From Candidatus Aminicenantia bacterium (GTDB lineage: Bacteria; Acidobacteriota; Aminicenantia; Aminicenantales; Saccharicenantaceae), in NCBI GenBank assembly GCA_041479905.1, contig JBGOYY010000009.1:653-64652 (forward strand): a DNA stretch of 64,000 nucleotides, read 5' to 3'. The notes below the pieces were generated by a model, which worked only from the letters and a program-made list of their open reading frames with translations, did not search any database and was not told the DNA's origin. Shown piece by piece: positions 24,939 to 64,000 of the stretch (positions within the stretch are counted from its first letter, which is position 1; each line of letters starts with the position of its first letter). The position numbers were made by a program, and so were the translations under genes.

Positions 24939-25020
24939 CACTCCCCCTCCAACAGCTTGACCACATTCTCTGCGATCCGCGCTTCCAGTTCGCGAGCCTC
25001 GGCGTTGAGGGTTTCCAGTT
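24935..25020. repeat. Direct repeat, copy 2 (authentic hsdM 3' end)
   Basis: Partner of 23743-23828. Confidence 0.85.
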
Positions 25021-26491: not shown

Positions 26492-26521
26492 AGTTTCTTC
26501 CTGCGTCTATTTCTATTTGCC

Positions 26522-26611
26522 ATCTAACGCTTCGGCTAACCTGCCGCGCCAACGAGTTTCCCGCATAGCGCCACCGCGCTTCTCGCGGTCAGGTTGAGCC
26601 GGTTGTTATAC
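26522..26611 (-). other. attC-like recombination site B (3' end of the membrane-protein cassette)
   Basis: The minus strand reads GTATAAC...AAGCGTTAGAT. The plus-strand fold has 16 bp (26533-26548 with 26584-26601) and exactly two bulged bases, T26589 and G26596, on the 3' arm, which is the classical T/G extrahelical pattern of attC bottom strands. Confidence 0.75.
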
Positions 26612-26627
26612 CTTTTTTCCTTTTATT

Positions 26628-27497
26628 TCATGATTTTGCACTCTTGAAATCTCGAACTGCTTCATCAACTTCTTTTTTATCCTTAAACCGTAAGGTATTG
26701 ATATGTTTAGACCATTTATTCAACACCCATAGATTTGTGCCGAAAGCAAGTATTGTTTTCTTTTTCACATATTTCAATAACGCTACATCCCTGACAAAGA
26801 ATCGAAGCCTGACAAATAGAGATTCGTAACCTGCATATAGCGCCGCAAAATACACGAATGGCAGGAACATGATTGAAAACAAGATAGGTAGATAATAGTT
26901 TTCTAAATTTTTAAAGGTAGCAAAGTGCTTAAAATCGGTAACCACCATATAGATGGCATAGCTTGTAAAGGCTAAACCAATAAAAGCCATGATGTAGTTT
27001 AAAAGTTTTTTTGCTATTTCGTATTTTTTATCTGTCCCGGCAATGGCTATCATTCCTCCTAAAATGACAAAAACTGGCACGAGGAATAGCTCAACCCATA
27101 AATCAAATACGTACAAGTTGATAAGGAATTCGAGAACGATCAAACCTTTGATGTTGTCTTTGATGGCGTCTTTAAAGAAGTTCTGATTACTTGCCTTTGA
27201 AAATTCAAATAGCATGACAAATGCAACGTACAAAACCCATAGGATAGTGATTTGTAAATGGGGCAATTTCCAAATACCAACTGCATTCAGAGGAATTATC
27301 ATAAGAGTAATGTACGAGAACATTATCACGTATGAAATTGCAAGTTTCCATGCGAAAAATGCTTTTAATACTTGAAATAATGATTTCCTGAGTTTGGGTT
27401 GGGAAAGCGCCCAGATGACGGCTATGAGTATCCATATTGCAATAGCAAGTTCTCGATTGCTGAATTTCTGGAACAAATTAATTGCCGTATTTATCAT
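26628..27497 (-). CDS. Polytopic membrane protein, no recognised family (AT-rich single-gene cassette)
   Basis: 289 aa with about 7 hydrophobic helices (IAIWILIAVIWAL, ISYVIMFSYITLMIIPL, ITILWVLYVAFVMLF and others) and a basic C-terminal tail. Confidence 0.6.
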   Translation of the reverse strand: MINTAINLFQKFSNRELAIAIWILIAVIWALSQPKLRKSLFQVLKAFFAWKLAISYVIMFSYITLMIIPLNAVGIWKLPHLQITILWVLYVAFVMLFEFSKASNQNFFKDAIKDNIKGLIVLEFLINLYVFDLWVELFLVPVFVILGGMIAIAGTDKKYEIAKKLLNYIMAFIGLAFTSYAIYMVVTDFKHFATFKNLENYYLPILFSIMFLPFVYFAALYAGYESLFVRLRFFVRDVALLKYVKKKTILAFGTNLWVLNKWSKHINTLRFKDKKEVDEAVRDFKSAKS

Positions 27498-27515
27498 TTT
27501 GGTAATTTTGTAATA

Positions 27516-27586
27516 GTATGACGTCTGCGGTGACCGGCGCGAAACCCGCCGCGGGTTTCGCGTACGTGTCGCCCGCCTTGTTCGCT
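27516..27586 (-). other. attC-like recombination site C (3' end of the 355-aa cassette)
   Basis: The minus strand reads AGCGAAC (5 nt after the stop)...GTCATAC. The plus-strand fold has an outer stem (27527-27536 with 27565-27576) with bulges T27567 and C27574, plus an inner 10-bp stem (27538-27547 with 27553-27562). Confidence 0.5.
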
Positions 27587-27591
27587 GTTCA

Positions 27592-28659
27592 TCATGTCTG
27601 CGGGTCTCTTTGTCCCGAAATAATGGCGATCAAATTCACAACTGCCGTAGTAGCCTCGGCACACATCGCAGCCGCTCGGAAGTCCGCCGTCCGCCTGTGC
27701 GTGACTTCGTTGGCGAAGTCCAATGATGATTTTGAATGTCGGCGTGCGGTTTCATTTGTTTGGCCGGGTAGCTTTGCCGCGAGATAGGCGTCGATCATTC
27801 TCTTCGCGTCAGTTGAGCTTGGGATGACACCATCCTCGGTGGGATACGCACCTGCATTGTAGACCGTCTGGGCTAGTGATATTAGAGTTTCTCGGCAGAG
27901 CAATCCAACGGCTTGAAACTGCTCCTCAGTTTTCGCTTGCGCGAGGCGCGTTCTTATCTCGCCAAGGGTTCGGTCAACACGAGTCCATCCAGTGGGTCCA
28001 GTGAAGATTATCTGTGTTGGCGTTATTTCGCCTTGCTTGAGCGCTTTCGCCACCGGACCGAACAGCCCGTTGATGTAGTTCCTTCGTGACTGGTAGGAGG
28101 GAAGGTCTCCGCTGCTCCATTTGCCGTACCATTCCCAGAGATCGGAGTACGGGTTGGGGTCTTCAATTTCTCTCTCTGCTAGCCCGGTGTGAATCAACTC
28201 GCGCCGCTCCTTGTAGTCGTGGTTAACAGTCTCGATGCGGGGGCCGCCAGTGGAGACGGATATCATTAGATTTCTCTGTGCATCGAGTGCTGTGAGCACA
28301 TCCGTGTTGGAGATCTGATGCGGTTGGATTGGCGTCTGTGTCGTAGTAATCAGTAGGGGCGAAACAACGACCTCTCCAATCCAAGTGTTCGGATATTTCC
28401 GCAGGATGGGTCGAAGCTTTTCCTTGATTGTCTCTTCAACGGTCTTCAGGTTTGCTTCGTAGGTTGCATAGATGTCTGTGGGCACTTCGAGGTATAGTCC
28501 ATAGATGTCGGTGCCACCATTCCAGTTGTCATAGCCGACTTGCTCAATTCGCGCTTGTGCAGCCCGCAGGATCTCGCTTTCTGGATAGCTGCCGTCGTGG
28601 TTGAACAGCTCTCGCAGTGTTCTGATCAGGGCGTCACAGTCTTGTGAAATATCGGCCAT
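27592..28659 (-). CDS. Hypothetical protein, orphan single-gene cassette
   Basis: Long ORF of intermediate GC. ATG 28659 is preferred over GTG 28686 because the latter would overlap attC site D. I recognise no catalytic motif. Confidence 0.6.
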   Translation of the reverse strand: MADISQDCDALIRTLRELFNHDGSYPESEILRAAQARIEQVGYDNWNGGTDIYGLYLEVPTDIYATYEANLKTVEETIKEKLRPILRKYPNTWIGEVVVSPLLITTTQTPIQPHQISNTDVLTALDAQRNLMISVSTGGPRIETVNHDYKERRELIHTGLAEREIEDPNPYSDLWEWYGKWSSGDLPSYQSRRNYINGLFGPVAKALKQGEITPTQIIFTGPTGWTRVDRTLGEIRTRLAQAKTEEQFQAVGLLCRETLISLAQTVYNAGAYPTEDGVIPSSTDAKRMIDAYLAAKLPGQTNETARRHSKSSLDFANEVTHRRTADFRAAAMCAEATTAVVNLIAIISGQRDPQT

Positions 28660-28668
28660 ATTCTTTTC

Positions 28669-28724
28669 AGCGAACGCAGAGCTCACCCGCCACTTTAAAG
28701 GTCGGGTGTAGCGACTGGTTAGCC
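28669..28724 (-). other. attC-like recombination site D (3' end of the dcm/GHKL/vsr cassette)
   Basis: The minus strand reads GGCTAAC (containing the vsr TAA stop)...GTTCGCT. The plus-strand fold has 11 bp (28681-28691 with 28700-28712) and two bulged T (28702, 28709) on the 3' arm. Confidence 0.65.
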
Positions 28725-29183
28725 GTATTTATTACCTTCGCCAGTATTTGTAGCTTCTTTTTTTCGTAACAAAACACGGGCGATTTCTTTAACACAAGTC
28801 GACGTATCTTTTTTTATTTCGAAATCCCAAAAACGAAAAACTTTCCACCCATCTTGCTTCAAGCGTATCGTGATTGCTTTATCTCTTCGTATGTTATCTT
28901 CAATTTTCTTGAGCCAAAAACCTTTTCTTACTTTTATTTTATTCTTTTCCTCCGACCAATTGAAACCATGCCAAAAAGAGGAGTCGCAAAACACTGCGAT
29001 CTTCCGACGTTTCCAACAAAAATCAGGCGTGCCGAGTACGCCCTTTAGATTCTTGCGATACCCGCGCAAACTTGAGGTCCAAAGCGCACTGCCCAGGATC
29101 TTTTCTATTCCCGTCCCTTTCGCTTTCACACAGGACATTTTGTATGAAACAATTTCCTTTTTACTTCGCTTTAAAAGAGTCAT
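28719..29183 (-). CDS. vsr: Very-short-patch repair endonuclease
   Basis: GTPDFCW...KIAVFCDSSFWHG core typical of Vsr. About 154 aa. Confidence 0.85.
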   Translation of the reverse strand: MTLLKRSKKEIVSYKMSCVKAKGTGIEKILGSALWTSSLRGYRKNLKGVLGTPDFCWKRRKIAVFCDSSFWHGFNWSEEKNKIKVRKGFWLKKIEDNIRRDKAITIRLKQDGWKVFRFWDFEIKKDTSTCVKEIARVLLRKKEATNTGEGNKYG

Positions 29184-29186
29184 TAC

Positions 29187-30863
29187 TTATTTATCTTTAT
29201 TAGACAACAGAGCTTTTATCCTCTCCTTTATATTGGAATAAACAGTAGTTAATTTACTTTTTGCCTCATCGGTTAGAAGGGCTGTATGTGCAAGGGCATC
29301 TCTAAGTGGTTTATACTCCTTTGCATCCCTCGAAAGACAAGCTTCCATCTGAGTATCTTTCTTGTCCACCATATTTGCAAGTGCATCCATTGCTAAATAA
29401 CTTAATATAGTATTTGTTTTTCTAATTTCTATGGATATGTTTCCTTTCTTTTTACTGTCCGTTTCTTTATTTCTCCATTTATCATATTCTTCTTTTGCTT
29501 CTTTAGAGAGGGGAACCTTCTTTTCTTGAATATATTTTCTGATTAGGTTTTCGGATATAAAACATTCCGCATAAGACGCAAAATTATATTTCGCATCAGC
29601 GCCCAAATCAATAACCCACCCATCAATAGTTTTACTATTCATTGAATCTTTAGGAAGAATATATTCTTCGGAAACTGCGTTATATAGTTCCTCAGCCTTT
29701 CTCTCTTTTTTGGTGATACTTGTATCCTCTGAATCACCATCATTTCTATGCTTTCTTCTCCAAGCATCCCAATCGTTAAGAATTTTACCTATAATTTTAT
29801 CTCTTAATGAATCTAGAAGCTCCTTGTATTTGGGGTCATCTGCAACGATGCTTTCACGACTACTAGTGAATCTGTCCACCACATCGTCCAAATCGTTAAA
29901 ATGAACCTGCCCGTATAAGTAACTTTCGACCACCCTAGCGGTGGGAATGTGTTTTAAAATGTCTCTTTCTCTTAATCTACCATTGACAAAAAGATCAACG
30001 CCGATCCTTTCGTCAATAGTAATTATTTTGAGATTCCTCGGCTTTTCGACAGAGGCAATAAATCCCTTAATATTTCCTTTTACATTAAGTTGTTTTTCTT
30101 CATTTTTGTCTGGAGTAAATTTCTCTTGAAGCTTCTGAATATAGGGATCGGGAAGATCGTTTATTTTCCATAGAAACTGCGTTTTTGAGGCAAGATCATC
30201 CAAACAATCCTGAGTAACCTTCTCATCGTCAATAAATATATCAAAGGCCTGATCCAATAAAGAGAATCGAAAATACAGAGCAATGATCTTTTTTAAGAAA
30301 CCTAAGCTATGTTTTATCCCGTCTTTGATATTTTCAAAATAAATAATAGTGCCTTGGTCATGATCTTTTATATGCTGGCTAAAAGTATCTATCCTCCATT
30401 CTCCTAATGGATATTCCTTTGGCGTCAAGTCGTCGGTTATGGCTCGATCCAAATCTGAATTATCAATAACCCCGCCAATATAATTCCCGCCGTGTGTTTT
30501 TGATATAATAGTAATTTTCTCTGCGCACGATAATAATGCTAATTTCCCGATTCCCTTTCTGCCGATGTATGGCCTATTTTTTTGGGGAGAAGCTTTTCCC
30601 TCTTTTCTTTTTGTATATCCGATCTTCAAAAACTTATTTTGGAAATCACCCGCAGTCATACCCACGCCATCATCTTTTATGAAAAAGTTGTTCTTTGCTT
30701 TATCGATATAAATGCTTACATTCTCAGCATCTGCATCCCATGCATTAGAAATCGCCTCCCCAAGAACAGTTGCGAAGCTTCTGTATAAATTTCTTCCCAA
30801 GTGATTTAGGACACTCAAAGAAATTTCAAACGAAAAATTATGACTTTCTGATTGGCTATTCAT
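29187..30863 (-). CDS. GHKL (HATPase_c, MutL/MORC-like) ATPase with long C-terminal extension and a possible HEPN-type Rx4H motif
   Basis: Bergerat-fold boxes EAISNAWDA (N box), IKDDGVGM (G1) and GRKGIGKLA (G2). LRDALAH lies 33 residues from the C-terminus. ATG 30863 overlaps the dcm stop by 8 nt. Confidence 0.75.
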   Translation of the reverse strand: MNSQSESHNFSFEISLSVLNHLGRNLYRSFATVLGEAISNAWDADAENVSIYIDKAKNNFFIKDDGVGMTAGDFQNKFLKIGYTKRKEGKASPQKNRPYIGRKGIGKLALLSCAEKITIISKTHGGNYIGGVIDNSDLDRAITDDLTPKEYPLGEWRIDTFSQHIKDHDQGTIIYFENIKDGIKHSLGFLKKIIALYFRFSLLDQAFDIFIDDEKVTQDCLDDLASKTQFLWKINDLPDPYIQKLQEKFTPDKNEEKQLNVKGNIKGFIASVEKPRNLKIITIDERIGVDLFVNGRLRERDILKHIPTARVVESYLYGQVHFNDLDDVVDRFTSSRESIVADDPKYKELLDSLRDKIIGKILNDWDAWRRKHRNDGDSEDTSITKKERKAEELYNAVSEEYILPKDSMNSKTIDGWVIDLGADAKYNFASYAECFISENLIRKYIQEKKVPLSKEAKEEYDKWRNKETDSKKKGNISIEIRKTNTILSYLAMDALANMVDKKDTQMEACLSRDAKEYKPLRDALAHTALLTDEAKSKLTTVYSNIKERIKALLSNKDK

Positions 30864-31929
30864 AATACTTATCAATATGCTTAATAATACTTTTTCCGAT
30901 TATTTCGCCTAATCGGACAGGTACAGCATTCCCTATGTATCTTCCTAATCTTTTAAGTCCCACAGGAGCAGTTGAAGGAATAAACTTATATTTTCTTGGA
31001 AAGGTTTGTAAAATTGCACCCTCTCGTATCGAAATGGCTCTATCTTGCTCAGGGTGACCAAATCGCCCTGTTCCAAAACTAAAAAACTGTGTGGTTATAG
31101 TAGGTGCCGGCTTATTCCATTCCATCCTTGCATAAACGGCACTATAAGTGTCGCCGGACTCTTTCCGATGACAATCCGCTCTTAATTTCTCATCCCAATC
31201 CCGCCATGAACTACCTGGCGCCGATTTTTTAATTCTTTCAAGATTGACTCCCGATAGAGCAGCCGATTTATGCAATCTATCCTTCCTTGATGATGTCCCG
31301 GCTTTAATTGACTCTAAATTACCGATAGCCATTTTGACTGTTTTGTAATTTTCTGGCTTATGTGTCGGAGCGATTAATTTTGTTTCTCCTAACTTTGAAG
31401 CAAATAGTACTAACCTTCTTCGATTTTGTGGAATTCCGTAATCTGGACAATATACAATTTGCCAACTGACATTATATTTTAACAACTTAAGACCTTCAAC
31501 AAAATCGGAGAAAACTTTATGTTTAGTTATCTGAGGAACATTTTCCATTGAAACTACTATGGGTTCCACTTTCTTAATCAATTTGAAAAAATGATAAAGC
31601 AATCCCCAATCTTCTTTAGTCTCTCTATCTTTTTCCTTTTGAGTATGCTTTGAGAATGGTTGGCATGGTGCACAACCTACCAAAACTTTCGAACTTTGGG
31701 TAGGATATAAATTTAGGATTTCTTTTGGTGTGATTTCTTTGATGCTCTTGTGAATAAACAATGCGCCATTGTTCTCTTCAAATGCAAATTTACATTTTTC
31801 ATCGACATCAACTCCGGCTACGACTTTAATACCGGACTTGTTCAAACCATAAGTCAATCCCCCAACTCCACAAAAGAGGTCTACCGCAACAATAGACAAT
31901 TTACTGTTTATATGAGATTTTGTATTCAT
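30856..31929 (-). CDS. dcm: DNA (cytosine-5)-methyltransferase
   Basis: Motif I DLFCGVGG, motif IV GCAPCQPFS, motif VI ENV, motif VIII QNRRRLV. Confidence 0.92.
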   Translation of the reverse strand: MNTKSHINSKLSIVAVDLFCGVGGLTYGLNKSGIKVVAGVDVDEKCKFAFEENNGALFIHKSIKEITPKEILNLYPTQSSKVLVGCAPCQPFSKHTQKEKDRETKEDWGLLYHFFKLIKKVEPIVVSMENVPQITKHKVFSDFVEGLKLLKYNVSWQIVYCPDYGIPQNRRRLVLFASKLGETKLIAPTHKPENYKTVKMAIGNLESIKAGTSSRKDRLHKSAALSGVNLERIKKSAPGSSWRDWDEKLRADCHRKESGDTYSAVYARMEWNKPAPTITTQFFSFGTGRFGHPEQDRAISIREGAILQTFPRKYKFIPSTAPVGLKRLGRYIGNAVPVRLGEIIGKSIIKHIDKYYE

Positions 31930-53778: not shown

Positions 53779-55488
53779 CTATTTTTCCTTGTAGAGCGCG
53801 TAGACGAACGGGTCGGTCGTCGTCTGCCAGCCGGAGCTCGCCCGCCGGCCGTCGCCGAGGAGCCAGGTGACCTCGTACTGGAAGCTCATGTCGTTCTCTT
53901 TGTGCAGGTACTCGTACTTGGTCAGGAGCGTCTCCGAGGGCAGGATCTTGGTCTCGCCCGTCTTTTCCCGGTCGAAGACCTTGTTCTTGAAGGCGACCGT
54001 GATCAGCTTGATGTTGAAGGCCTTGACGTTCTCCTCGTCGGCGATGACGTCAACCTGGCGGTAGCGGTGCGGCGGGAAGAGGTTGATCGCGGCCTCCTCG
54101 CTCCGGGTCCAGGTCCCGTCAACCTTAATGCCGCCCATGAAGCTCCAGGTCGTCTTGAACTCGTAGCCGAGCCAACTCGCTCCCTCGCCGAGCCGGGGGT
54201 AGACAAAAGGCAGCATGTTGCCCCGTTCGGCGAAGGACTGGGCGTTGAAAATGATGTCGCGTGTCGTCGGTTCGCCCGACGGGTGCGTCTTCTTGAAGCT
54301 CACCGTGACGAAGTTGATGTACTTCTTGAAGGTGTCGAAATCCTCGCCGTCGAGGATGGCGAAGACCTGCCGGTCCTGGAGGTCCGGGTCGTCGAGGTTG
54401 ATGATGTCGTAGACCTTCTTGTTGTTCTTGAATTTGCGCAGCGTATCGCCGATGCTGGCGTCCATCGGGCCCGTCTCGCGTTCCTGGCGGAGCCTTTTCG
54501 TCAAGTTGACCGTCCATGTGTCCGAGCGGGTGACACTCTTCATCGTCGTGCTGACACCGTAGGGCTTGTCCGGCTGCTTCGGGGCCTCGCCGCCCTCCTG
54601 GCCGCCGCCCTGCTCCCCTTCCTGGTTCTCGCCGGGGAGCTCCATTTTCATGTCGAACATCTCCCGCATGACCGAGTCGACGACGGTCTGGAGGATGGCT
54701 TCCATGTTCTGATCTTCGCCGGTCACGTCGATCTTGACGGCCCCGACGGATTTGAGGTCGTCGGAGATCCGCAGCTCTTCGCCCGTTCCCTTCTGAACGT
54801 ACCAACTCCAGAACATGAAGGTTTTCTTTTTATAGATCTTCCACTTCTTGTACTGCTCGAAATACGTGCGTACTTTCGACCAAGAGATGGTCGCGTTGGC
54901 CTGGTACTTCGGCGTCAGGCCCTCGTAGGTCATATCGAAGCGGACGCTGACCGGGTAGGTCGGCTGGCGAAGCGCCTCCTCGAGGAAGGCCGCGCCTTCC
55001 GGGGTCACGGCGATCGAGACCGAGACCTCGGAGCCGGTGATCAGAGGGGCCTTGCCCTCGCCGATGATCTTCCGGGTGAAAACTCCGCCCTCGCCGGCCG
55101 CGGCCGAAATGACCATGAACGTCCCTTTTTTAAAAACGATGGGGCCCTTGAGCTTGGCGCCGGGCTCCTGCTTGGTCAGCTCCTGGCGGACCTTGGCCAG
55201 CTCCTGTTCGTCGAGACCGTACTTGACGAAGAAATGGAGGATGCCGCCCTTGGCCTCCTCTTTGCCGGCCTTGGTGTATTTGAGGAAGGTCAACTTGGGC
55301 GTGCCGTCCGGCCAGAAGGCCAGGCGGGGCTGGTTCGGCATGTAGTAATAGGCCCCCGCCTCGGCCTGGTCCTTGAAGAGAAGGGCGTTGCCGATCTGGA
55401 GCGGCGCCTTGTCGAGCTCGATCTCCGCGGCCAGGAACGAGGCAACAAACAACATCCCGACGGCGGTCGCGAACAGTTTTTTCTTCAT
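53779..55488 (-). CDS. Secreted protein, uncharacterised paralog family, member 5 of operon (569 aa)
   Basis: Signal peptide MKKKLFATAVGMLFVASFLAAE. Shares N- and C-terminal modules with 55513-58296 and 59339-61009 (YYYMP, GGILHF, SAAAGEGGVF, ...FVYALYKEK end). Confidence 0.8.
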   Translation of the reverse strand: MKKKLFATAVGMLFVASFLAAEIELDKAPLQIGNALLFKDQAEAGAYYYMPNQPRLAFWPDGTPKLTFLKYTKAGKEEAKGGILHFFVKYGLDEQELAKVRQELTKQEPGAKLKGPIVFKKGTFMVISAAAGEGGVFTRKIIGEGKAPLITGSEVSVSIAVTPEGAAFLEEALRQPTYPVSVRFDMTYEGLTPKYQANATISWSKVRTYFEQYKKWKIYKKKTFMFWSWYVQKGTGEELRISDDLKSVGAVKIDVTGEDQNMEAILQTVVDSVMREMFDMKMELPGENQEGEQGGGQEGGEAPKQPDKPYGVSTTMKSVTRSDTWTVNLTKRLRQERETGPMDASIGDTLRKFKNNKKVYDIINLDDPDLQDRQVFAILDGEDFDTFKKYINFVTVSFKKTHPSGEPTTRDIIFNAQSFAERGNMLPFVYPRLGEGASWLGYEFKTTWSFMGGIKVDGTWTRSEEAAINLFPPHRYRQVDVIADEENVKAFNIKLITVAFKNKVFDREKTGETKILPSETLLTKYEYLHKENDMSFQYEVTWLLGDGRRASSGWQTTTDPFVYALYKEK

Positions 55489-55512
55489 TTTCTTTCCAGC
55501 CTCCTTTCGCGG

Positions 55513-58296
55513 CTATTTCTTCGTATAGACGGCGTAGATGAACGGGCTCTCCTTGGTCATCCAGTCCGTGTGGACCTCCCGCCCGTCGAGGAGCAGCCAA
55601 ACGACTTTGTAGCTGTATCCGAGATTTCCATCTTCGTGCAGGTACGTGTAGGCGGCCTGCAGGGGATCTCCCTTGTCGTAGTTGATGATGACTTCTTTCA
55701 GAATGTCTTTGCCGTAGATCCGATGTTTGATCTGCAGGGCCAGCGCCTTGACGCTATTCTTGAGGATGTTATCCTCGTCGACCGAGATCTCGAGCGTCCG
55801 GCGCCGGACCGGCGGCGAGAGCGTCAGGACCGAATCGGAGGTCTTCGTCCAATCGCCTTCCCACTCGACGCCGCCGTAGAAGCTCCACTTCGGCTTGTAT
55901 TCGTAGTCGAGCCACTCCGTCGACGCTTCGTTCAACCGCCCGTACTTGAAGGACAGGCAGTTGCCGCTCTGAGCGAACTGTTGGTCGACGAATTTTACTT
56001 CGCCCATCATCGGCGCGCCGGAGAACCTCTGCTTGCGGAAGAGGACCGAAACGCTGTTGATGTAGTTCTTGAAGTCCGAGGCGTCCTGGCCGTCGAGGAT
56101 GACCTCGACCGAACGCTCCTGGAAGGTCGGGTCGTCCAGGCTGACCACGGTGAAGAAACGCTTGTCCTCGCCGTATTTCTGGTAGATGCCGCCGATGTTG
56201 CCGCTCATGACGATGTCGCGGTCCTCGCGGAGGCGCTTGCGCATGTCCACTTCGTAGTTGCCCGACATCTTGACCCGCTTAAAGGAATAGCCGACCTGGA
56301 CACTGACGATGGGCTTGATGGCGGCATCGGGCTTGGCCCCGGGTTTGGCCCCGGGCTTGGCCCCCGGGGCCTGGGGTGTGGTCTTCGCCGGCGGCGTCTG
56401 GCCCGAGGGAGGTTTGGTCCCCTGTCCGCCCGAAAGGCCCTGTTGGCTCTGCCCGCCCGCGACGTTGGCGCCCTGGGTCTGGCCCGACGGCGGCTTGGCC
56501 CCCGTAGCCGCCGTCCCGGGCGGATTGGCGCCGGTGGTTTGCGCGCCAGCGGCCGCCGCTTGTTGGCCGCCTATTGCGGCCTGGGCCTGCCCCGTCTGGG
56601 TCTGTTGGGCAGCCTGCTGGGATTCCTGACGCCGCTGCCGCCGGGCCTCTTCCGCAGAGACCTGGGCTTGCTCGGTCTGCGGCCGGGCCGCGGCCGCTTC
56701 TCCGAGCAAGGGCCGGAGCGCGTCAATACACGCTTGGGAGGCCTCCACGTCGCCCTGGAACCGCTCGGGGTTCTGGCTGGTCGTGGCCAGACGGATCGCC
56801 GCTTCGAAATACTCGAGCGCTTTTTGGTAGTCCTCACGGCCGCCTGTCTCGTCTCCGATGGCCTTCTGACAGACCCCCAAGTTGAAGAGGAACACGGGCA
56901 AGGGGATGTGGCCGTAGAGCCAGCGGAATTCTTCATAGGCTTGGACGTATTCCCCCGCGTCGAATAGGCTATTGCTCAAGTCTAGGTGGCGAGCGTACTC
57001 GGAATAATCATTCAGGTAGGTTTGAGCCGTCGCCCGGCGGTCCGCGTACTCGGTCAGGCCCTCCGTCTTTTGCACGAATTCCTCAAAGGCGGACTTGGCC
57101 CGCCCATGTTCGAAAGCGCCAAAAGCCAGGATATCGGCCATCTCGTAGAGATAACCGGGATCTGGGCAGGACTCATACGCTTTTTGATACATGTCGGCCG
57201 CTTCGACGTACTTGCGCGCGCGGCGGAGCTCCACCGCCCTGCTGACGAACGATTCGGCGCTCTGCCGTGCTTGGGCATCGCAGGGAGAGCCGACGGCCCG
57301 CTGCGTCTGGACCTGGTCCTGGTCGGCCCAGGGACCGCCGCGGAGACACTCGTCCGCGGTGCGGATGACGTCCGCCAGGACGCTCATCGACCAGGCCGGA
57401 TGAGCTCCCGGCAGGTCCGCGACGACCGCCGGGACAGGCCGCTTTTTGGCCGGTGGGCTTGGCGCTTCCCCGGGGCCCATGGGCACCTTCTCGCACATGA
57501 GCGAGAGGAGATGAGCGTAGACCGTGTCGAGCATCTTCTGCATATTCTCGTTCTCGCCCACGATCTCGAGCTCGATCGCGCCTTTCTGGCGCAGTTCTTC
57601 TAAGATAGCCCTGACATCGGCTTCGATCTTGACGACCTTGATCTGACCTTCGGCATGGAGCTTGATGTCGTGCTGGGTGTAGACTTTGTCCCAGTTGACC
57701 TTGAGCTTGGCCTGGAAGGCCGGCGAAACGCCGGTGAATTTCAGGTCGAACATGACCGAGATGTCCGAGGTCGGGTTCTTGAACGACTCCCAGAGAAGCG
57801 AGGCCCCCTCCTCGGTCAGGGCGATCGAAACGGCCGCCTTCTGGCCGGGCATGATGGGCGCCTTGCCCTCGCCGACGATCCTGCGGCTGAAGATCCCGCC
57901 CTCGCCCGCCGTCGCCGAGACGACCTTGAACGTCCCCTCCTTGAACGGCACAGGACCGGCGATCTTGGCCTCCGGGTCCTTCAGACGAAGGGCCGATTCG
58001 GCCGAGCTCAACTCGCCCTCGGTCATGCCCCAAGTCACCAGGAAGTGGACGATCCCGCCCTTGGTCGCGCCGTCGGTCTTGGTGTATTTGATGAAGGTGA
58101 ACTCCGGCGTCCCGTCCCGCTTCGTCGCGAGGCGCGGTGCGTCCGGCACATAGTAATACTTGTGCGCGTCGGCGTGGTCCCGGTAAAGCACGAAGCGTCC
58201 GGCCTGGACGACCTCGTCCAAGGCCACCTCGGCGGCCAGGAAGAGTCCCGCCGCGAACACGAAAACGACCGCGAGGAGCGCTCTTTTCGATCTCAT
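55513..58296 (-). CDS. Secreted protein of the same family with inserted TPR-like and low-complexity segments (927 aa)
   Basis: Signal peptide; N-module (YYYVP, GGIVHF, SATAGEGGIF); TPR-like helices; a Q/A/G/P/K-rich tract; C-module ending FIYAVYTKK. GGGAGG upstream of ATG 58296. Confidence 0.8.
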   Translation of the reverse strand: MRSKRALLAVVFVFAAGLFLAAEVALDEVVQAGRFVLYRDHADAHKYYYVPDAPRLATKRDGTPEFTFIKYTKTDGATKGGIVHFLVTWGMTEGELSSAESALRLKDPEAKIAGPVPFKEGTFKVVSATAGEGGIFSRRIVGEGKAPIMPGQKAAVSIALTEEGASLLWESFKNPTSDISVMFDLKFTGVSPAFQAKLKVNWDKVYTQHDIKLHAEGQIKVVKIEADVRAILEELRQKGAIELEIVGENENMQKMLDTVYAHLLSLMCEKVPMGPGEAPSPPAKKRPVPAVVADLPGAHPAWSMSVLADVIRTADECLRGGPWADQDQVQTQRAVGSPCDAQARQSAESFVSRAVELRRARKYVEAADMYQKAYESCPDPGYLYEMADILAFGAFEHGRAKSAFEEFVQKTEGLTEYADRRATAQTYLNDYSEYARHLDLSNSLFDAGEYVQAYEEFRWLYGHIPLPVFLFNLGVCQKAIGDETGGREDYQKALEYFEAAIRLATTSQNPERFQGDVEASQACIDALRPLLGEAAAARPQTEQAQVSAEEARRQRRQESQQAAQQTQTGQAQAAIGGQQAAAAGAQTTGANPPGTAATGAKPPSGQTQGANVAGGQSQQGLSGGQGTKPPSGQTPPAKTTPQAPGAKPGAKPGAKPDAAIKPIVSVQVGYSFKRVKMSGNYEVDMRKRLREDRDIVMSGNIGGIYQKYGEDKRFFTVVSLDDPTFQERSVEVILDGQDASDFKNYINSVSVLFRKQRFSGAPMMGEVKFVDQQFAQSGNCLSFKYGRLNEASTEWLDYEYKPKWSFYGGVEWEGDWTKTSDSVLTLSPPVRRRTLEISVDEDNILKNSVKALALQIKHRIYGKDILKEVIINYDKGDPLQAAYTYLHEDGNLGYSYKVVWLLLDGREVHTDWMTKESPFIYAVYTKK
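56329..56364. repeat. 12-nt tandem repeat x3 inside the low-complexity tract
   Basis: GGGCTTGGCCCC / GGGTTTGGCCCC / GGGCTTGGCCCC, encoding (GAKP)x3 on the minus strand. Confidence 0.9.
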
Positions 58297-58318
58297 GCCG
58301 TCCTCCCTCTCAGGGAAT

Positions 58319-59335
58319 TCACGTTCGGCCGTCCTTGACGGCGATGTCGTATGTGGAGAGGTCGAGGAACGTCTCCCCGCCCTCCTTCCATGAACCTTTC
58401 TCCGAACGGCCGTCGGCGAAAACCCTGGTCAAGCGATATTTGTACGTTCCGCCTTTGGCCTCGGGGATGTCGAACTCGAGGTCCACTTGCGGCTCGGACC
58501 CGGCCATGAACGCGACCGTCCGGAAATCGCGCTGCTTCTTGGCCGTCAGGATCTCGACCTCGGCGGTGATCTTCACGACATCCTTGTTCGCCCCGTTGAC
58601 GAAGTCGAAACAGAGGATGCTCATCCTCCGGTAGTTGAAGGAGACCTTGTCGGCCAGGTTGACCAGCTTGAAGAGGCCCGGGTCGTTGGCCATGGAGACG
58701 GGCACGGCGAAGGACAGCCGGTGGTCCCGCTCGCCCTCCTTGAGCTTGCCTTCGTCGTCGATCTCGAAGCCGCCGAAGGTGAACTCGCATTCGACGGATA
58801 GGCCCGTCGCTTTTCCGTCCTCGAAGATCTTCCAGAGGTAGCTCGCCGAGTCGCGGCCGAGCGGCAAGGTGAAGCTCTTCCTCGCCCAGAGGAGCTCCTT
58901 TTTGGCCAGTTCCTCTTTCTTCTCCTCGGGATCCCCCGGTTCCAGGCGACTGTAGTTCAGGACACAGGTCAGCTTGTCGATGGGGACAGGCCGGTATTCG
59001 TAGGCGGGGCCTTTCGCCTTTCGGAGCGTCTCCGTCTCGTCCGCGAACTCGACGGCGAGGGCCAGGACACCGCCGGCGATCGTTTGGGGGCCTTCGGGCG
59101 CGTCGGCTTTGACGTAGACATACTTGTAAAAGAAGAATTGGGGCTTGTCGAACGATCGGACCAGGGCCAGGCCGGCCGGGACGTAATAGTAGACGTTCGG
59201 CGCCTTGTGGTCGGGGAAGATGAGGATGCGGCCGCCGACCGTCTCGGGCTTCGAGAGCAAGGGGTCGGCGAAAAGGCCGGAGACCGCCGCTCCCAGGAAG
59301 GCCAGAGCCCCGATGGCGGCCGCAGTCCGTCGCAT
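58319..59335 (-). CDS. Secreted protein, short member of the family (338 aa; shares only the YYYVP N-terminal module)
   Basis: Signal peptide; ILIFPDHKAPNVYYYVPAGLALV...FFFYKYVYV parallels the N-termini of the larger paralogs. The start is 3 nt after the upstream stop. Confidence 0.7.
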   Translation of the reverse strand: MRRTAAAIGALAFLGAAVSGLFADPLLSKPETVGGRILIFPDHKAPNVYYYVPAGLALVRSFDKPQFFFYKYVYVKADAPEGPQTIAGGVLALAVEFADETETLRKAKGPAYEYRPVPIDKLTCVLNYSRLEPGDPEEKKEELAKKELLWARKSFTLPLGRDSASYLWKIFEDGKATGLSVECEFTFGGFEIDDEGKLKEGERDHRLSFAVPVSMANDPGLFKLVNLADKVSFNYRRMSILCFDFVNGANKDVVKITAEVEILTAKKQRDFRTVAFMAGSEPQVDLEFDIPEAKGGTYKYRLTRVFADGRSEKGSWKEGGETFLDLSTYDIAVKDGRT

Positions 59336-59338
59336 GCC

Positions 59339-61009
59339 CTATTTCTCGTAGTAGGCGTAGATAAAGGGGTCTGTGGCGCTCTGCCAACCCGAGGAGGACT
59401 TGGTATTGTCCTTGAAAAGCCAGGTGATGTTGTACTCGTATTCGAGGTTGTTCGGCTCGTGAAAATAGACGTAGTTGATGTTGAGCGGTTCGCCCTTCCT
59501 CAGGACAACCTCCTTCTGGAGCTCCCGGCCGAAGTTCTTGTGGCGGAACTGGACCGCGATCCGGATGACGCCCTTCGTCGTCATGTTCTCTTCGTCCGCC
59601 AAGACCTCGATGTAGCGGTACTTGTGGGGCGGGGCCAGCGTGATCACCGGCTGCGACGTCGTGATCCAATCGCCGTTGACCTCGAGCCCGCCGATGTAGC
59701 TCCACAGGGGCTTGTACTGGTATTCGAGCCACTTGTCCGTGGCGTCGCCTTTCCGCCGGTACTTCAGGGACAGTGTGTTGCCGTTCTGTCCGAACTTGGC
59801 TTTGTCGAAGACGAGGTCCTCGGTGATGGACTTCATGTCCGCGTCCTGGTATTCCTTCTTGAAGGTGATCCCGGCGAAGTTGATGAACTGCTTGAAGGTC
59901 TCCAGGTCCTCGCCGTCGAGGATGACGCTGACCGTCCGCTCCTCGAAGGTCGGATCGTCGAGGTCGACGACGGTGAAGAGAGCCGGGTTCTGCCCGTGCT
60001 CCTTGTAGAAATGCCCGATATTCCCGGTGAGGGGGATCTCCCGGCTATCCCGCTTCCTCCGGGTCAGGTCGACCGTGTACTTCCCGGTCATCTTGACGGT
60101 CTTCTGGTAATAGCCCATGTGGGCCTGGCCAAAGAGCTTGCCGAACCAGTTGCCGCCCGTCGACGCCTGGGATTTCCCGATGTCCTCGGGCTTGACGGGC
60201 TTGGCGTCGAACATCATCTTGGCGATGGTGTTGTAGGCCGTCTCTAAGAGCTCGTCCATCTTGGTATCCTCGCCGATGACATCGAGTTTGATGGCCCCCT
60301 GCTCCTTGAGCTCGGCATAGATCTTCTGGATCTGGACGCTGACGAAGACGTTGCCGGCGTCCATCTTGAATTCCTTATGGTTATAGACCTTTTCCCAATC
60401 GACGGTCAGCTTCGCCTGGTAGGCGGGGGTCAGGCCCTGGTAGGTCAGGACGAATTGGACAGAGACATCCGACGTCGGCTGCTTGAAGGAGTTCAGGAGC
60501 AGGGTCGAGCCCTCTTCGGTCAGGGCGATGGACACGGCCGCCTCCGAACCGGTCAGGAGCGGGGCCTTGCCCGTGCCGCAAACCTTCCGGGCGAAGACGC
60601 CGCCCTCGCCCGCCGAGGCCGAGATGATGTGGAAATCGCCCTTGGTGAACATCACCGGACCGAGGATCTTGCCGTCCTTGTCCACCTTGGTGAGCTCCCT
60701 GCGGGCCGCGTTCAGCTCTTCCGCGGTCAGCCCGAATGTGCACAGGAAATGGAGGATGCCGCCGGTGATGTCCTTGCCGGAGCGGACGTATTGGATGAAG
60801 CTGAATTTCGGGACCCCGTCGGGCCAAGCGGCGATACGCGGTTCGAGCGGCATGTAATGATAGCCGTGGGGGTCGGCGTGGTCCCGGAAGAGCAGGGCGT
60901 TCTTGACCTGGATCGGCTCGACGTCGAGCAGGACCTCGGCCCGCAGGGCCAGAGGCAGCACGGCCGCCATAAGGCACAGGCCCAAGCCTAACTTCAGGAT
61001 TCGGTTCAT
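59339..61009 (-). CDS. Secreted protein, same paralog family (556 aa)
   Basis: GGGAGG upstream of ATG 61009. Signal peptide MNRILKLGLGLCLMAAVLPLALRA; YHYMP, GGILHF, SASAGEGGVF; C-terminus FIYAYYEK. Confidence 0.8.
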   Translation of the reverse strand: MNRILKLGLGLCLMAAVLPLALRAEVLLDVEPIQVKNALLFRDHADPHGYHYMPLEPRIAAWPDGVPKFSFIQYVRSGKDITGGILHFLCTFGLTAEELNAARRELTKVDKDGKILGPVMFTKGDFHIISASAGEGGVFARKVCGTGKAPLLTGSEAAVSIALTEEGSTLLLNSFKQPTSDVSVQFVLTYQGLTPAYQAKLTVDWEKVYNHKEFKMDAGNVFVSVQIQKIYAELKEQGAIKLDVIGEDTKMDELLETAYNTIAKMMFDAKPVKPEDIGKSQASTGGNWFGKLFGQAHMGYYQKTVKMTGKYTVDLTRRKRDSREIPLTGNIGHFYKEHGQNPALFTVVDLDDPTFEERTVSVILDGEDLETFKQFINFAGITFKKEYQDADMKSITEDLVFDKAKFGQNGNTLSLKYRRKGDATDKWLEYQYKPLWSYIGGLEVNGDWITTSQPVITLAPPHKYRYIEVLADEENMTTKGVIRIAVQFRHKNFGRELQKEVVLRKGEPLNINYVYFHEPNNLEYEYNITWLFKDNTKSSSGWQSATDPFIYAYYEK

Positions 61010-61032
61010 GATGTTCCTCCCGTCATCCATGG

Positions 61033-63213
61033 TCATTTCTGGAAGATCTTCTTGACGTGGAAAGTCCCCAAGGTGAGGTCCAGGGAATCCACGACCTTTT
61101 CCCAATCGGCCGACTCGGCGGATTCGCCCGTCTTGAGAACAGCCTTGATCTTAAATTCGAACGTCAGTTGCTCCTGGGTCGCGAGCGGCAGGTAGACCAC
61201 GACGAGGTCCTTGAGCTTGTTCTTGTCGAGGTCGACGGCGGCCATCAGGCCCTCCTTGGCCTGGGCGCTGAGATAGGGGGAACGGATCTCGACGTGGAGC
61301 TTCTCGACCTCGAGGGGCGTTTCGTAGGCCGCCGGGTCGAAGACGTTGGCCAGGGCTTCGACGTTGACCTTCCTCATCCGTTCGATGTAGGAGACGACCT
61401 CGATCGTCCCCCAGATCTTGTCCAGGCATGCCTGGCAGTCGAAGTCGGGGGCGGCTTCCATCCAGAAACTCCGGGCGTAGGTCTTGAAGAAGGTGTCCAT
61501 CTTCGGGTCGGCCGGAACGCTTTTTCCCGCCGGCTTGGCGGCCTCTTTGTCCTTGTCGAGCTTCTTGTCGAGCTCGTTCTTGAGGAGCCCCATGGCGGTC
61601 TCGAGGAGCGGGTTCTTCTTCTTGGGGGGCGGGGGCGCCGTCGGGTACAACTTGCGGTACTCGGCCAGAAGCTGGTCGCGGAGGACAAGCCGGGCTTGGA
61701 CGTCCCGAGATTCGCCCGGCGGGATGACGACATCCGGTTGGCAGGCGAGGCTCTTGTAGACCTCTTCCTTATTTGGGAGCCGGAAGCGCAGGCTGACGTT
61801 GGCGATCTTCAGGGGGAAATCGGAGAGGTTGCGGACGTTATGGAGGGTCAGGAGCGAGGTCCGCTCGTCGTAGGAGAAGCCGAGTTCCTCGAGGGGCGAA
61901 TACCACCGGCCGGTGAAATACTTCAGCCCGACCTTGATGGGGATCTCGCGTTCGACCTCCCCGGTCTTGATGCGCATGCCCGCGGTCAGACCCTCCTTCT
62001 CGAGAAGGGGCTTGAGCTGGGCCAGCGTCTCCGGAGTCATGCCTATGCTGATCGGGAGTTCGGTCTCGAGAGAGCCGAACGTCGGGATACGGATATTCTC
62101 GATCTGCCAGTCCTCCCAACCTTTCATGTCGATGATGTTGGCCTCGTCGTAGGGCATGGATTTGAGGACGGCCGACGTCCCTTTGGCCGCTTTGAGCGCT
62201 TCCTCCATGACCTTGACATCGCTCGGGTCGATGTTGGCCTGGAGCGTCAGCGTCGTCCGGATCTTCTGGTCTTGCGTCCAGACCGCGCTCACGCGGTAGT
62301 CCCCGGTCGCATTCTCCCGGATGAGGTTGATCTCACGCGGCAGAAAATAATAGGTGTTCGGCTTGGCATTGTCCTTATAGACCCTATTAAGCAGGGTCAG
62401 GGGCTCTTCGATGGCGAGGGGTCCGACGTCTTCGATGGCGTGTTTGGGCGGCGCGGATCCGGCGGGCGTCAGGGTGATCGGCCTCATGTTGACCTTGTTG
62501 AAGGCCGCCAGCTCCAGTTTGGGTTTCACCGTCATTCCCCCCTGGGGCAGAGCCATGGTCGCGGTCTTGGCGGCCGCCGTCGCTCCCATGGCCGGCGTCG
62601 ACAGCCGGCTCACGGCCAGATCCTGGGTGACGGCGGCCGAGGCCCAGACGGCCCAGTCCTGAGTTGCCGTCTCACCGGCCGCGACCTGGAGCCGGAACGT
62701 GACCGTCTTGCCCGCGTACGGGCCGAGGTCGGCCGCGAGTTCGTCGAGGACGCCGTCGTAACGGGCGTTCTTGGCGGCGATGAGCCGGACGGCCCCCGTC
62801 GTCTGGTCGACGACGTGGACCTCGAAGGTCGCGCCGTCGGTGGCCGTCGCGCCTTTCAGGAATCCGACCAACGCCGTGAACTTGGCGTTGGCGGGGATCT
62901 GGACGTTGGAATAAGTCCCGAAGATCATTCCGGCCTTTTTCCATTCGGGGTGTGTTTCAAGAACGAGGGCGAAACTCTTCCCGCTTTCCAAGGCGACATT
63001 CGTCAGATGACGGACGAAACCCCGGCTGTCGCCATCCGAGCCGTTCCAGGGCAGCTCGCCCGGCGCCGTGAGGACGCGGGCCCAGCGGGCCTCCGGGGCC
63101 TTTTGGACGAAATCATAAACGACGGCCGATCCGAGCGAAGAGACGGCCCCGAGAACGAGACCGGCCAGGATGAAGATCCGCGTCAGGCGGCGGAAAGGGA
63201 ACATGGCGTCCAT
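61033..63213 (-). CDS. Secreted or anchored protein, first gene of the operon (726 aa), distant relative of the family
   Basis: AAGGAGG lies 5 nt upstream of ATG 63213. N-terminal hydrophobic segment; a unique about 200-aa N-domain; then NTYYFLPREINLI, a block analogous to the YYYxP module. Confidence 0.75.
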   Translation of the reverse strand: MDAMFPFRRLTRIFILAGLVLGAVSSLGSAVVYDFVQKAPEARWARVLTAPGELPWNGSDGDSRGFVRHLTNVALESGKSFALVLETHPEWKKAGMIFGTYSNVQIPANAKFTALVGFLKGATATDGATFEVHVVDQTTGAVRLIAAKNARYDGVLDELAADLGPYAGKTVTFRLQVAAGETATQDWAVWASAAVTQDLAVSRLSTPAMGATAAAKTATMALPQGGMTVKPKLELAAFNKVNMRPITLTPAGSAPPKHAIEDVGPLAIEEPLTLLNRVYKDNAKPNTYYFLPREINLIRENATGDYRVSAVWTQDQKIRTTLTLQANIDPSDVKVMEEALKAAKGTSAVLKSMPYDEANIIDMKGWEDWQIENIRIPTFGSLETELPISIGMTPETLAQLKPLLEKEGLTAGMRIKTGEVEREIPIKVGLKYFTGRWYSPLEELGFSYDERTSLLTLHNVRNLSDFPLKIANVSLRFRLPNKEEVYKSLACQPDVVIPPGESRDVQARLVLRDQLLAEYRKLYPTAPPPPKKKNPLLETAMGLLKNELDKKLDKDKEAAKPAGKSVPADPKMDTFFKTYARSFWMEAAPDFDCQACLDKIWGTIEVVSYIERMRKVNVEALANVFDPAAYETPLEVEKLHVEIRSPYLSAQAKEGLMAAVDLDKNKLKDLVVVYLPLATQEQLTFEFKIKAVLKTGESAESADWEKVVDSLDLTLGTFHVKKIFQK

Positions 63214-63341
63214 TCGGTCCTCCTTCTTCAGGGTAATGCGACCTTTATCCAGGGAGAAAGATCTCCCCATTGCCCAAAGACTTTAGCCGGGCGAGCGGGA
63301 TGACGAAAGGCTTTTTCAACCTCAGCACGACCTTTGAGGCT

Positions 63342-63371
63342 ATTATAAGGCCGTGAAAAAAGAGATGTCAA
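63342..63371 (-). promoter_or_regulatory. Consensus sigma70 promoter of the five-gene operon
   Basis: Minus strand: TTGACA (63371-63366), an 18-nt spacer, then TATAAT (63347-63342). It sits about 130 nt upstream of ATG 63213. Confidence 0.6.
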
Positions 63372-63442: not shown

Positions 63443-64000
63443 ATGAAAATGGGTCCTGGTCTCAAGGTCGTCGGCCTGGCCGTTGTCTTGGCGGCCGCGG
63501 CCGCCTGCGTCCGCTTCCATCCCAAGCCGATCGCGCCGGTGAAGGCCATGGAGGATTTCGAAGCCCGGCGGCTCGACGCCCCGGAGCTCAGAGACTTTTT
63601 GCTCCGAAATCAGGACGCCAAGGACTGGCCCCCGGCCGCCTGGGACCTCAAATCGCTGACCCTGGCCGCGTTCTACTATCATCCCGACATGGACGTCGCC
63701 CGGGCCCAATGGGGGGTAGCCCGGGGCGGCCGGATCACCGCGGGCGAACGGCCCAATCCGTCCTTGAATCCGCTCGTGGGATACAACGCCACGTCGCCGA
63801 GGAGCGAGGTCACGCCCTGGATCCCCGAGGTCTCACTCGAGATCGCCATCGAAACGGCCGGCAAGCGCGGTTACCGGATCGCCGAGGCCAGGTCCCTATC
63901 CGAAGCGGCGCGCTGGAACATCCTGTCCGCGGCCTGGGAAGTGCGCAGCCGCCTGCGCGGCGCCCTGCTCGAAGCGTACGCGGCCGGCGAGAGAGAGGCT
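63443..64000 (+). CDS. TolC/CzcC-family outer-membrane efflux lipoprotein (5' part; runs off the right edge)
   Basis: Hand translation is open to the window end: MKMGPGLKVVGLAVVLAAAAACVRF (lipobox) ... LKSLTLAAFYYHPDMDVARAQWGVARG ... ETAGKRGYRIAEA, typical of the N-terminal region of efflux OMFs. Confidence 0.7.
   Translation, partial: MKMGPGLKVVGLAVVLAAAAACVRFHPKPIAPVKAMEDFEARRLDAPELRDFLLRNQDAKDWPPAAWDLKSLTLAAFYYHPDMDVARAQWGVARGGRITAGERPNPSLNPLVGYNATSPRSEVTPWIPEVSLEIAIETAGKRGYRIAEARSLSEAARWNILSAAWEVRSRLRGALLEAYAAGEREA

Follow-up and report, generated by a model that had tools for sequence, protein, structure and literature searches.

A conserved five-gene block of Aminicenantes encoding predicted exported paralogs of a cross-phylum superfamily

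Introduction

Type V pili of the Bacteroidota (FimA-E, Mfa1-5) are composed of about five mutually paralogous exported subunits which are encoded in one operon and serve as stalk, anchor and tip of the pilus. A set of genes which resembles them in this respect is the subject of the present study: five minus-strand open reading frames (ORFs), named G1 to G5 and together called the block, located at 53779-63213 of a 64,000-nucleotide stretch of DNA (the window) from a Candidatus Aminicenantia bacterium of the phylum Acidobacteriota (assembly GCA_041479905.1, contig JBGOYY010000009.1). A preliminary description made from the sequence by eye had marked this block as an operon of secreted paralogs belonging to no family that could be named.

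The resemblance to type V pili extends to tandem beta-sandwich domains and to the lack of an encoded usher or ATPase. Type V pilins mature via a clan CD protease, and caspase-like peptidases adjoin the block in some of the phyla in which relatives of G1 to G5 were found. The type V pilin-like JCSG structure 3pay was matched by Foldseek with a probability of 0.98-0.99, but with template modelling (TM) scores of 0.16-0.25 and a root-mean-square deviation of about 12 A. Type V pilins are lipoproteins, whereas the block proteins have no lipobox, and neither the five proteins nor 57 relatives matched a FimA or Mfa family in Pfam. Furthermore, type V pilins have no counterpart to the N-terminal domain (N-domain) of about 250 amino acids found here, and the family occurs also outside the Bacteroidota and also in signal-less form.

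Sortase-assembled pilins (Spy0128 / T-antigen backbone) gave the best Foldseek matches for the C-terminal half (probability 1.0, about 290 columns), but identity was 8-9% with a TM score of 0.25, and isopeptide triads are not evident in the block proteins. Such pilins are Gram-positive and require an LPxTG motif and a sortase, whereas the block has no LPxTG motif and no sortase gene and occurs in diderm phyla. Chaperone-usher pili (Fim/Pap) likewise consist of Sec-exported paralogs, and their FimH-like N-terminal lectin head recalls the head of G1 and its counterparts; however, genes for a chaperone or an usher are missing from the block and its surroundings, no pilin Pfam match was obtained, and subunits of about 150-300 amino acids contrast with 340-930 amino acids here. 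The multi-component toxins (leukocidins, Hbl/Nhe, AhlABC/SmhABC) are co-transcribed Sec-exported paralogs which act together, as we propose for the block, but they show no similarity to it in sequence or fold, have fewer components and lack its housekeeping-like conservation. In alpha-2-macroglobulin, TEP and complement proteins, strings of MG/immunoglobulin (Ig)-like domains were aligned by Foldseek to the entire G2 model (about 600 columns, TM score about 0.1), and TEP1 and C4 were among the weak Foldseek matches of the N-domain; the block, however, has neither a CxEQ motif nor an A2M Pfam match and consists of five short paralogs instead of one chain of ~1,500 amino acids. For S-layer proteins, the strong conserved promoter of the block would be compatible, but the block has no SLH or other S-layer Pfam domain.

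The closest analogy is with multi-subunit pili, type V above all, or multi-component secreted assemblies. We nevertheless place the block outside these known kinds, because no lipobox, LPxTG motif, usher, chaperone, sortase, family domain, thioester or fold match was found. We tentatively propose that its five products form an abundant Sec-exported hetero-oligomeric structural assembly made from one two-module brick, a reading which we regard as possible rather than probable.

Results

Modular architecture of the five proteins

The products of G2, G4 and G5, which had been aligned by eye at both ends, are indeed pairwise 42-44% identical over ~270 N-terminal and ~260 C-terminal residues, and the invariant columns of their alignment are the motifs listed in the preliminary description, including the ending ...PF(I/V)YA.Y..K. 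An AlphaFold2 (AF2) model of G2 with a predicted local distance difference test (pLDDT) value of 78.9 comprises, behind the signal peptide (residues 1-24), an alpha/beta N-domain (25-271), a disordered linker (272-297), C-domain 1 (298-458), which is a beta-sandwich with inserted helices, and C-domain 2 (460-556), which is a further beta-sandwich. In G4, an insert of ~370 amino acids separates N- and C-domains of the G2/G5 type. It contains TPR matches in two stretches within residues ~350-505, and the G4 orthologs bear TPR Pfam matches as well.

The two remaining proteins had been said to keep only the (Y/F)YY.P-type module, and profile comparisons placed both of them in the paralog set. For G3 the assignment is clear, with residues 1-195 matching the family N-domain (hhalign 98.6-99%, E 7e-16 to 7e-18) and residues 196-338 matching the family C-domains (hhalign 88-91%). 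G1 opens with a signal peptide and a putative beta-sandwich head (residues ~30-205); an A/T/P-rich linker connects this head to a divergent N-module (~255-460), behind which lies a C-terminal part. Residues 255-460 of G1 matched the family N-domain less strongly (hhalign 66-90%, E 5e-5 to 2e-6), and C-domain 2 was tentatively matched by the last 130 residues (hhalign 49%). The G1 profile recovered corresponding genes of Bacteroidota with E-values of 2e-8 and 6e-8. In the G1 head, a match to the NPCBM/NEW2 carbohydrate-binding module (PF08305) remained sub-threshold (12.4 bits vs a cut-off of 23.9); such sub-threshold matches recur in 10 of 14 G1 orthologs, with a best E-value of 0.032. As judged from these alignments, all five proteins are built from common modules. 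G1 is the least certain case; its membership is real but weak, and it is the weakest link of the five.

Search for a known family or fold

The view that no named family accounts for the proteins was upheld by every library used. The five proteins, together with 57 + 14 + about 40 relatives, were compared with Pfam, NCBIfam, PADLOC and PHROGs; no family was assigned to the five apart from the TPR of G4 and the sub-threshold NPCBM match of G1. The sole PHROGs match (0.024) concerned the TPR region of G4. The 57 diverse relatives, searched singly against Pfam, gave nothing, and neither did the other classes of the family in NCBIfam. Sequence-profile searches of the PDB with the alignments A1, A3, A5 and A6 returned nothing below E 0.03; a match to nsp8 was rejected as a coiled-coil artefact. 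Enzyme, LPxTG, heme and thioester motifs were not found in the five proteins, nor was an SLH or other S-layer Pfam domain. A pattern scan of IMG/VR yielded no relatives, and literature searches on Aminicenantes, DUF7452 and cross-phylum paralogs turned up nothing relevant.

In a Foldseek search of the PDB, the whole G2 model matched only generic Ig-like strings (Spy0128 pilin, MG-domain proteins, a Bacteroides pilin-like protein) with TM scores <=0.3. As these Ig-like matches could mask the N-domain, it was modelled alone (residues 25-275, 68 sequences) and searched again. The resulting AF2 model reached a pLDDT of 82.8, with values >90 over most of the first 110 residues. Its best PDB match had E 0.04 and TM <0.3. 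Folds of enzymes, gasdermins, lipid carriers or pore formers were not recovered, and MACPF/CDC, aerolysin/ETX-MTX2, leukocidin, gasdermin and ClyA-type proteins were all missing from the top 50 matches. The only significant structural match came from BFVD, namely A0A7S7YF07, an uncharacterised protein of 417 amino acids from Medusavirus stheno T3 (E 8.8e-5, probability 1.0, TMq 0.39, 215 columns). A hidden beta-amphipathic membrane hairpin was looked for and none was found. On the basis of the models, the N-domain of ~250 amino acids has no solved structural relative in the PDB, and the C-domains are ordinary Ig-like sandwiches.

A cross-phylum family with subunit classes

When 1.84 billion cluster representatives were searched exhaustively with HMMER, 2,540 family members were retrieved at E <=1e-3 and 696 at <=1e-30, each being the representative of a cluster at 50% identity. 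Named members derive from Armatimonadota, Lewinellaceae, Saprospiraceae, Flavilitoribacter and the cultured flavobacterium Aurantibacter crassamenti. The latter carries a full block, and Nonlabens xiamenensis, also cultured, has a distant relative. In every genomic context that was fetched (L043-L048 and L040, with L043 from Armatimonadota, L046 from A. crassamenti and L048 from Lewinellaceae), 5-8 relatives stand in a tandem block. A scan of GTDB with one narrow peptide pattern matched Aminicenantes only and is uninformative on distribution elsewhere; a homolog search with the diverse alignment A3 returned the Aminicenantes set again and added nothing.

Reciprocal best matches sorted the genes into classes A to F across Armatimonadota, Bacteroidota and other lineages, with one or two genes of a class per block. 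G1 corresponds to class A (~450-770 amino acids), for which the matches of the G1 profile are about 1e-8, G3 to class B (~340-470 amino acids), G2 and G5 to class D, and G4 to class F. Classes C and E are absent in Aminicenantes. Orthologs of G3 with 352-474 amino acids are present in L043-L048. Outside Aminicenantes the order of the genes is re-arranged relative to that of the Aminicenantes block.

Two classes carry variable additions. The class A head varies, as exemplified by L048, where it consists of DUF7452 repeats (3x DUF7452), and in L047 a separate PKD-domain gene adjoins the class A gene. The class F insert may be TPR, low complexity or, once, a GDSL hydrolase: the class F-type protein P0184 has a TPR insert, and P0185 has a GDSL/SGNH hydrolase (residues 597-876) at the position of the G4-TPR linker, which suggests that this linker is a general payload site. 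Some blocks have conspicuous neighbours. Exported C14 caspase-like or C1 papain-like peptidases adjoin them at L044 17567-23195, L047 2539-3933 and L048 21682-21764, and those of L044 and L047 are fused to or lie beside DUF4384. The L044 block has a YdbH-like gene of the AsmA family on one side and a YnbE/YdbL-like gene on the other.

A sister branch devoid of signal peptides was found in Myxococcota, in a protein from a metagenome-assembled genome (MAG) labelled Gammaproteobacteria and in the loci L041, L049 and L050. Four classes of paralogs are orthologous between its blocks, which in addition hold one or two further paralogs and an unrelated but conserved partner of 765-934 amino acids; Ser/Thr kinase or subtilase genes are situated nearby. 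In P0257, a signal-less member encoded at L049 2655-5510, residues 272-370 at the linker position matched Baseplate_J (PF04865) with 25.7 bits and E 8e-6, which exceeds the gathering score. The match is an isolated one; further genes of a contractile system were not seen in its neighbourhood. Taken together, sequence comparison indicates that the family is a large cross-phylum superfamily and not Aminicenantes-specific, with a multi-paralog block in at least three other phyla.

Conservation and selection in Aminicenantes

The close homologues of the five proteins are all 'hypothetical' proteins from Aminicenantes or Saccharicenans MAGs, with the G4 orthologs annotated as TPR proteins. Conservation of the block as a unit, on which the preliminary description had placed weight, was found in about 30 Aminicenantes genomes: the order G1-G2-G3-G4-G5 is kept in about 30 species-representative loci, while identity across the loci drops to 49% for G1 and 66% for G2. 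Exceptions are L020, where G4 is duplicated, and L025 and L032, each of which has a sixth paralog. The flanks differ between Aminicenantes sublineages; the block is an autonomous unit whose order and content are stable while its flanks change.

Ratios of nonsynonymous to synonymous substitution rates (dN/dS), computed against three orthologous loci, were 0.04-0.35 across the five genes, which indicates purifying selection. Values of 0.14-0.29 were obtained for G1, 0.08-0.22 for G2, 0.14-0.33 for G4 and 0.04-0.14 for G5, the most constrained of the five, whose dN/dS is equal to or below that of the adjoining aspartate carbamoyltransferase (ATCase) gene. G2 and G5 together (0.04-0.22) are constrained like the neighbouring ATCase and GMC oxidoreductase genes. 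Selection on the block does not look like an arms race. As the dN/dS values support the minus-strand frames, ORFs on the opposite strand, for example 53902-56967 (+), are regarded as high-GC shadows.

Signal peptides

All five N-termini, described before as signal-peptide-like, display a basic n-region, a hydrophobic 12-mer (mean Kyte-Doolittle value 2.3-2.9) and an Ala at -1, and heuristic reading gave predicted cleavage sites such as LRA|E, LAA|E, LFA|D and GSA|V. A lipobox [LVI][ASTVI][GAS]C was absent from the first 40 residues of all five proteins, and a second hydrophobic or transmembrane segment was not detected in any of them. The N-termini are of the signal peptidase I type throughout the family, and in nearly all members a Sec-type signal peptide is directly followed by the conserved first strand; except in class A, the mature N-termini lie 0-3 residues before this strand. 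Signal-less homologues begin exactly at the predicted mature N-terminus of the exported members, which supports the predicted cleavage. The five products are therefore presumably exported via Sec, with signal-peptide-like N-termini whose cleavage is predicted heuristically.

Operon structure and promoter

The tight packing of the genes behind a consensus promoter was confirmed. The intergenic gaps from G1 to G5 measure 23, 3, 22 and 24 nucleotides, and a Shine-Dalgarno (SD) sequence of the GGAGG type precedes each of G1, G2, G4 and G5; for G3, the start 3 nucleotides past the G2 stop suggests translational coupling. An alternative ATG of G1 exists at 63270, but the SD sequence AAGGAGG is located 5 nucleotides before the ATG at 63213. 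In 10 Aminicenantes loci a perfect TTGACA-18-TATAAT sequence occurs once per locus, 130-160 nucleotides upstream of the G1 ortholog, and in the 10 aligned orthologous leaders the promoter hexamers and the SD sequence are invariant, with the rest of the DNA 53% identical. A perfect consensus promoter is also found upstream of the first gene of L043, the block from Armatimonadota. RNAalifold indicated a weak possible SD-masking helix in the leader (-2.7 kcal/mol), and an Rfam search of block and leader gave no match. With short gaps and a single promoter, the five genes constitute one operon, which is probably strongly transcribed. High expression of the block appears likely from a promoter kept perfect in diverged loci and in Armatimonadota. 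The GC content of the block (0.60-0.65 vs about 0.62 for the window) is host-like, as noted before, and a recent import was rejected on this composition. All features of the window are compiled in Table 1.

Neighbouring genes

The divergent czcC-like gene next to the block, which had been considered as a possible constant neighbour, proved not to be one. In none of the other Aminicenantes loci does this gene, of the OEP/TolC family, lie beside the block, not even in those which are 92-97% identical in the block. At a distance from the block, a low-GC island extends over 24938-31929 of the window (GC 0.37-0.48 vs about 0.62). Probably, a restriction-modification or defence island has been imported here.

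Table 1. Features of the window and, in the last row, signal-less blocks of other loci (coordinates of the respective locus)
Feature	Coordinates	Strand	Basis or remark
Sigma-70 consensus promoter TTGACA-18-TATAAT	63342..63371	-	12/12 consensus match
5' leader, about 125 nt	63214..63341	-	alignment of 10 orthologous leaders
Leader motif TCGCCCGGCTAAA (TCGCCCGACTAAA-type; TCGCCCG(G/A)CTAAA)	63282-63294	-	nearly invariant in 10 Aminicenantes loci; surrounding leader diverges
SD sequence AAGGAGG in G1 leader	63219-63225	-	invariant in leader alignment
G1, class A subunit, 726 aa	61033-63213	-	ORF
G2, class D subunit, 556 aa	59339-61009	-	best cross-phylum matches are class D genes
G3, short class B subunit, 338 aa	58319-59335	-	signal peptide, N-module 1-195, one C-type beta-sandwich
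G4, class F subunit, 927 aa	55513-58296	-	best cross-phylum matches are class F genes with variable inserts
TPR-containing insert of G4, ~340-520	56737..57279	-	TPR_2 27.0 bits (cut-off 27.0), TPR_1 25.9
Low-complexity Q/A/G/P-rich linker of G4, ~520-665	56302..56736	-	translation and alignment
G5, second class D-like subunit, 569 aa	53779-55488	-	42% identical to G2
Divergent OEP/TolC-family lipoprotein gene (signal ...AAAAAC)	63443-64000	+	OEP 23.5 bits; runs off window end
C5-cytosine DNA methylase in low-GC island	30856-31929	-	
GHKL HATPase_c_3 protein in low-GC island	29187-30875	-	
Two ORFs without Pfam match in low-GC island	26628-28686	-	
Type I HsdM methylase adjoining low-GC island	24938-26491	-	
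Signal-less blocks	L041 4410-16698; L049 498-15510; L050 2424-16948		4-6 tandem paralogs

Discussion

The evidence favours the interpretation of the block as a hetero-oligomeric assembly without proving it. A fixed and old set of distinct paralogs travels together across phyla and in two compartments, as would be expected of an obligate hetero-oligomer. Further arguments for an assembly are the slow evolution of the core, the conserved strong promoter and the absence of any enzyme, membrane or secretion component, and the C-terminal half resembles two-domain pilin backbones (Foldseek probability 1.0, TM score about 0.25). In such an assembly, the brick would be the N-domain of ~250 amino acids plus one or two Ig-like beta-sandwich C-domains, and the subunits would co-assemble outside the cytoplasm into a periplasmic or surface scaffold, or a fibre. 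G2 and G5, the most constrained class D proteins, may form the core, and the truncated class B protein G3 may act as an adaptor or terminator. The class A protein G1 could be the end, tip or anchor subunit, while the class F protein G4 would present a TPR platform on a long flexible linker. A polarity is suggested by the fact that only class A has a lineage-variable, possibly glycan-binding head before the N-module, the others starting at the first strand. This head may be likened to the tip or anchor subunits of chaperone-usher or type V pili, which is meant as an analogy, not as evidence. The block contains no secretion, anchoring or polymerisation factor, and the assembly may be located in the periplasm or at the surface.

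Several points weigh against this interpretation. Interaction between the subunits is inferred, and the roles assigned to the subunits are analogies only. Signal-peptide cleavage was predicted by heuristic reading. No usher, sortase, lipoprotein signal, type IX secretion system C-terminal domain or SLH domain is encoded in the block. The Foldseek similarities are of a generic Ig-like kind with TM scores <0.3, and the existence of the signal-less sister branch shows that the fold is not restricted to the envelope.

One rival explanation, which we consider improbable, is that the products damage membranes as a toxin or pore of several components, or act as effectors in suicide or defence. The N-domain would then be the active part, restrained by the C-domains until cleavage of the linker frees it, as in gasdermin-caspase pairs or protease-activated beta pore-forming toxins. 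The layout of the proteins, with an N-domain of ~250 amino acids, a disordered variable linker and C-domains, would suit this mechanism, as would the peptidases adjoining the L044, L047, L048 and L050 blocks, which are caspase-like (C14), papain-like (C1) or subtilases (S8) and in many cases accompanied by DUF4384. Exported and cytoplasmic versions both exist, and co-expressed paralogs recall bi- and tri-component toxins, although 5-8 components are unusually many. However, no peptidase adjoins the Aminicenantes block, and no match to MACPF/CDC, aerolysin/ETX, leukocidin, gasdermin, ClyA or Cry proteins was obtained by sequence or by Foldseek with the N-domain. A long alternating amphipathic hairpin is absent, the low-confidence helices being alpha-amphipathic and not beta-amphipathic, and housekeeping-like selection and a constitutive-looking consensus promoter also argue against a toxin.

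The genes could also encode a periplasmic scaffold or carrier for envelope biogenesis or maintenance, which tethers or presents proteins, lipids or glycans between the membranes and uses the class F linker as a docking or payload site; to this explanation, too, we assign a low probability. Export by Sec alone makes the periplasm the default location in diderm phyla, and strong purifying selection as well as the class F inserts, namely TPR in G4 and P0184 and the GDSL/SGNH domain in P0185, would agree with it. The flanking of the L044 block by YdbH-like and YnbE/YdbL-like genes points in the same direction, but this context was observed only once. No match to a lipid-binding fold (TULIP, AsmA, LolA) was found, the exported branch is without a conserved non-paralog partner, and the signal-less sister branch cannot work in a periplasm.

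Least probable among the rivals is that the products, although co-regulated and exported, act independently as binding proteins, adhesins or substrate binders of differing specificity, and that tandem duplication alone has kept their genes together: the variable class A heads (NPCBM-like and sub-threshold in G1, DUF7452 in L048, the separate PKD gene in L047) and the varying copy number (G4 twice in L020, a sixth paralog in L025 and L032) would fit, but anciently diverged classes are maintained one-to-one across phyla with no lineage-wise expansion or contraction, the evolution of the core paralogs G2 and G5 is as slow as that of ATCase, the gene order is fixed within Aminicenantes, and G3 has no obvious ligand-binding add-on.

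Returning to the hetero-oligomeric assembly, a bolder version would be an undescribed, ancient, cross-phylum self-assembling hetero-oligomer, that is a fibre, sheath or scaffold of 4-8 fixed paralogs with a new N-domain fold, no dedicated usher, sortase or ATPase, and both exported and cytoplasmic lineages; we regard this version as doubtful.

Relatives of the block range over Acidobacteriota (Aminicenantes), Armatimonadota, Bacteroidota and Myxococcota, with one relative labelled Gammaproteobacteria. Whatever their function, they represent a clearly delimited family suited to Pfam curation and structure determination. If the assembly interpretation is true, these bacteria would possess a structure of the envelope or surface which is widespread, probably expressed in abundance and named in no database. 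It would add a new assembly principle to those of bacterial fibres and scaffolds, provide a function for thousands of 'hypothetical' genes and reveal a new fold for the N-domain.

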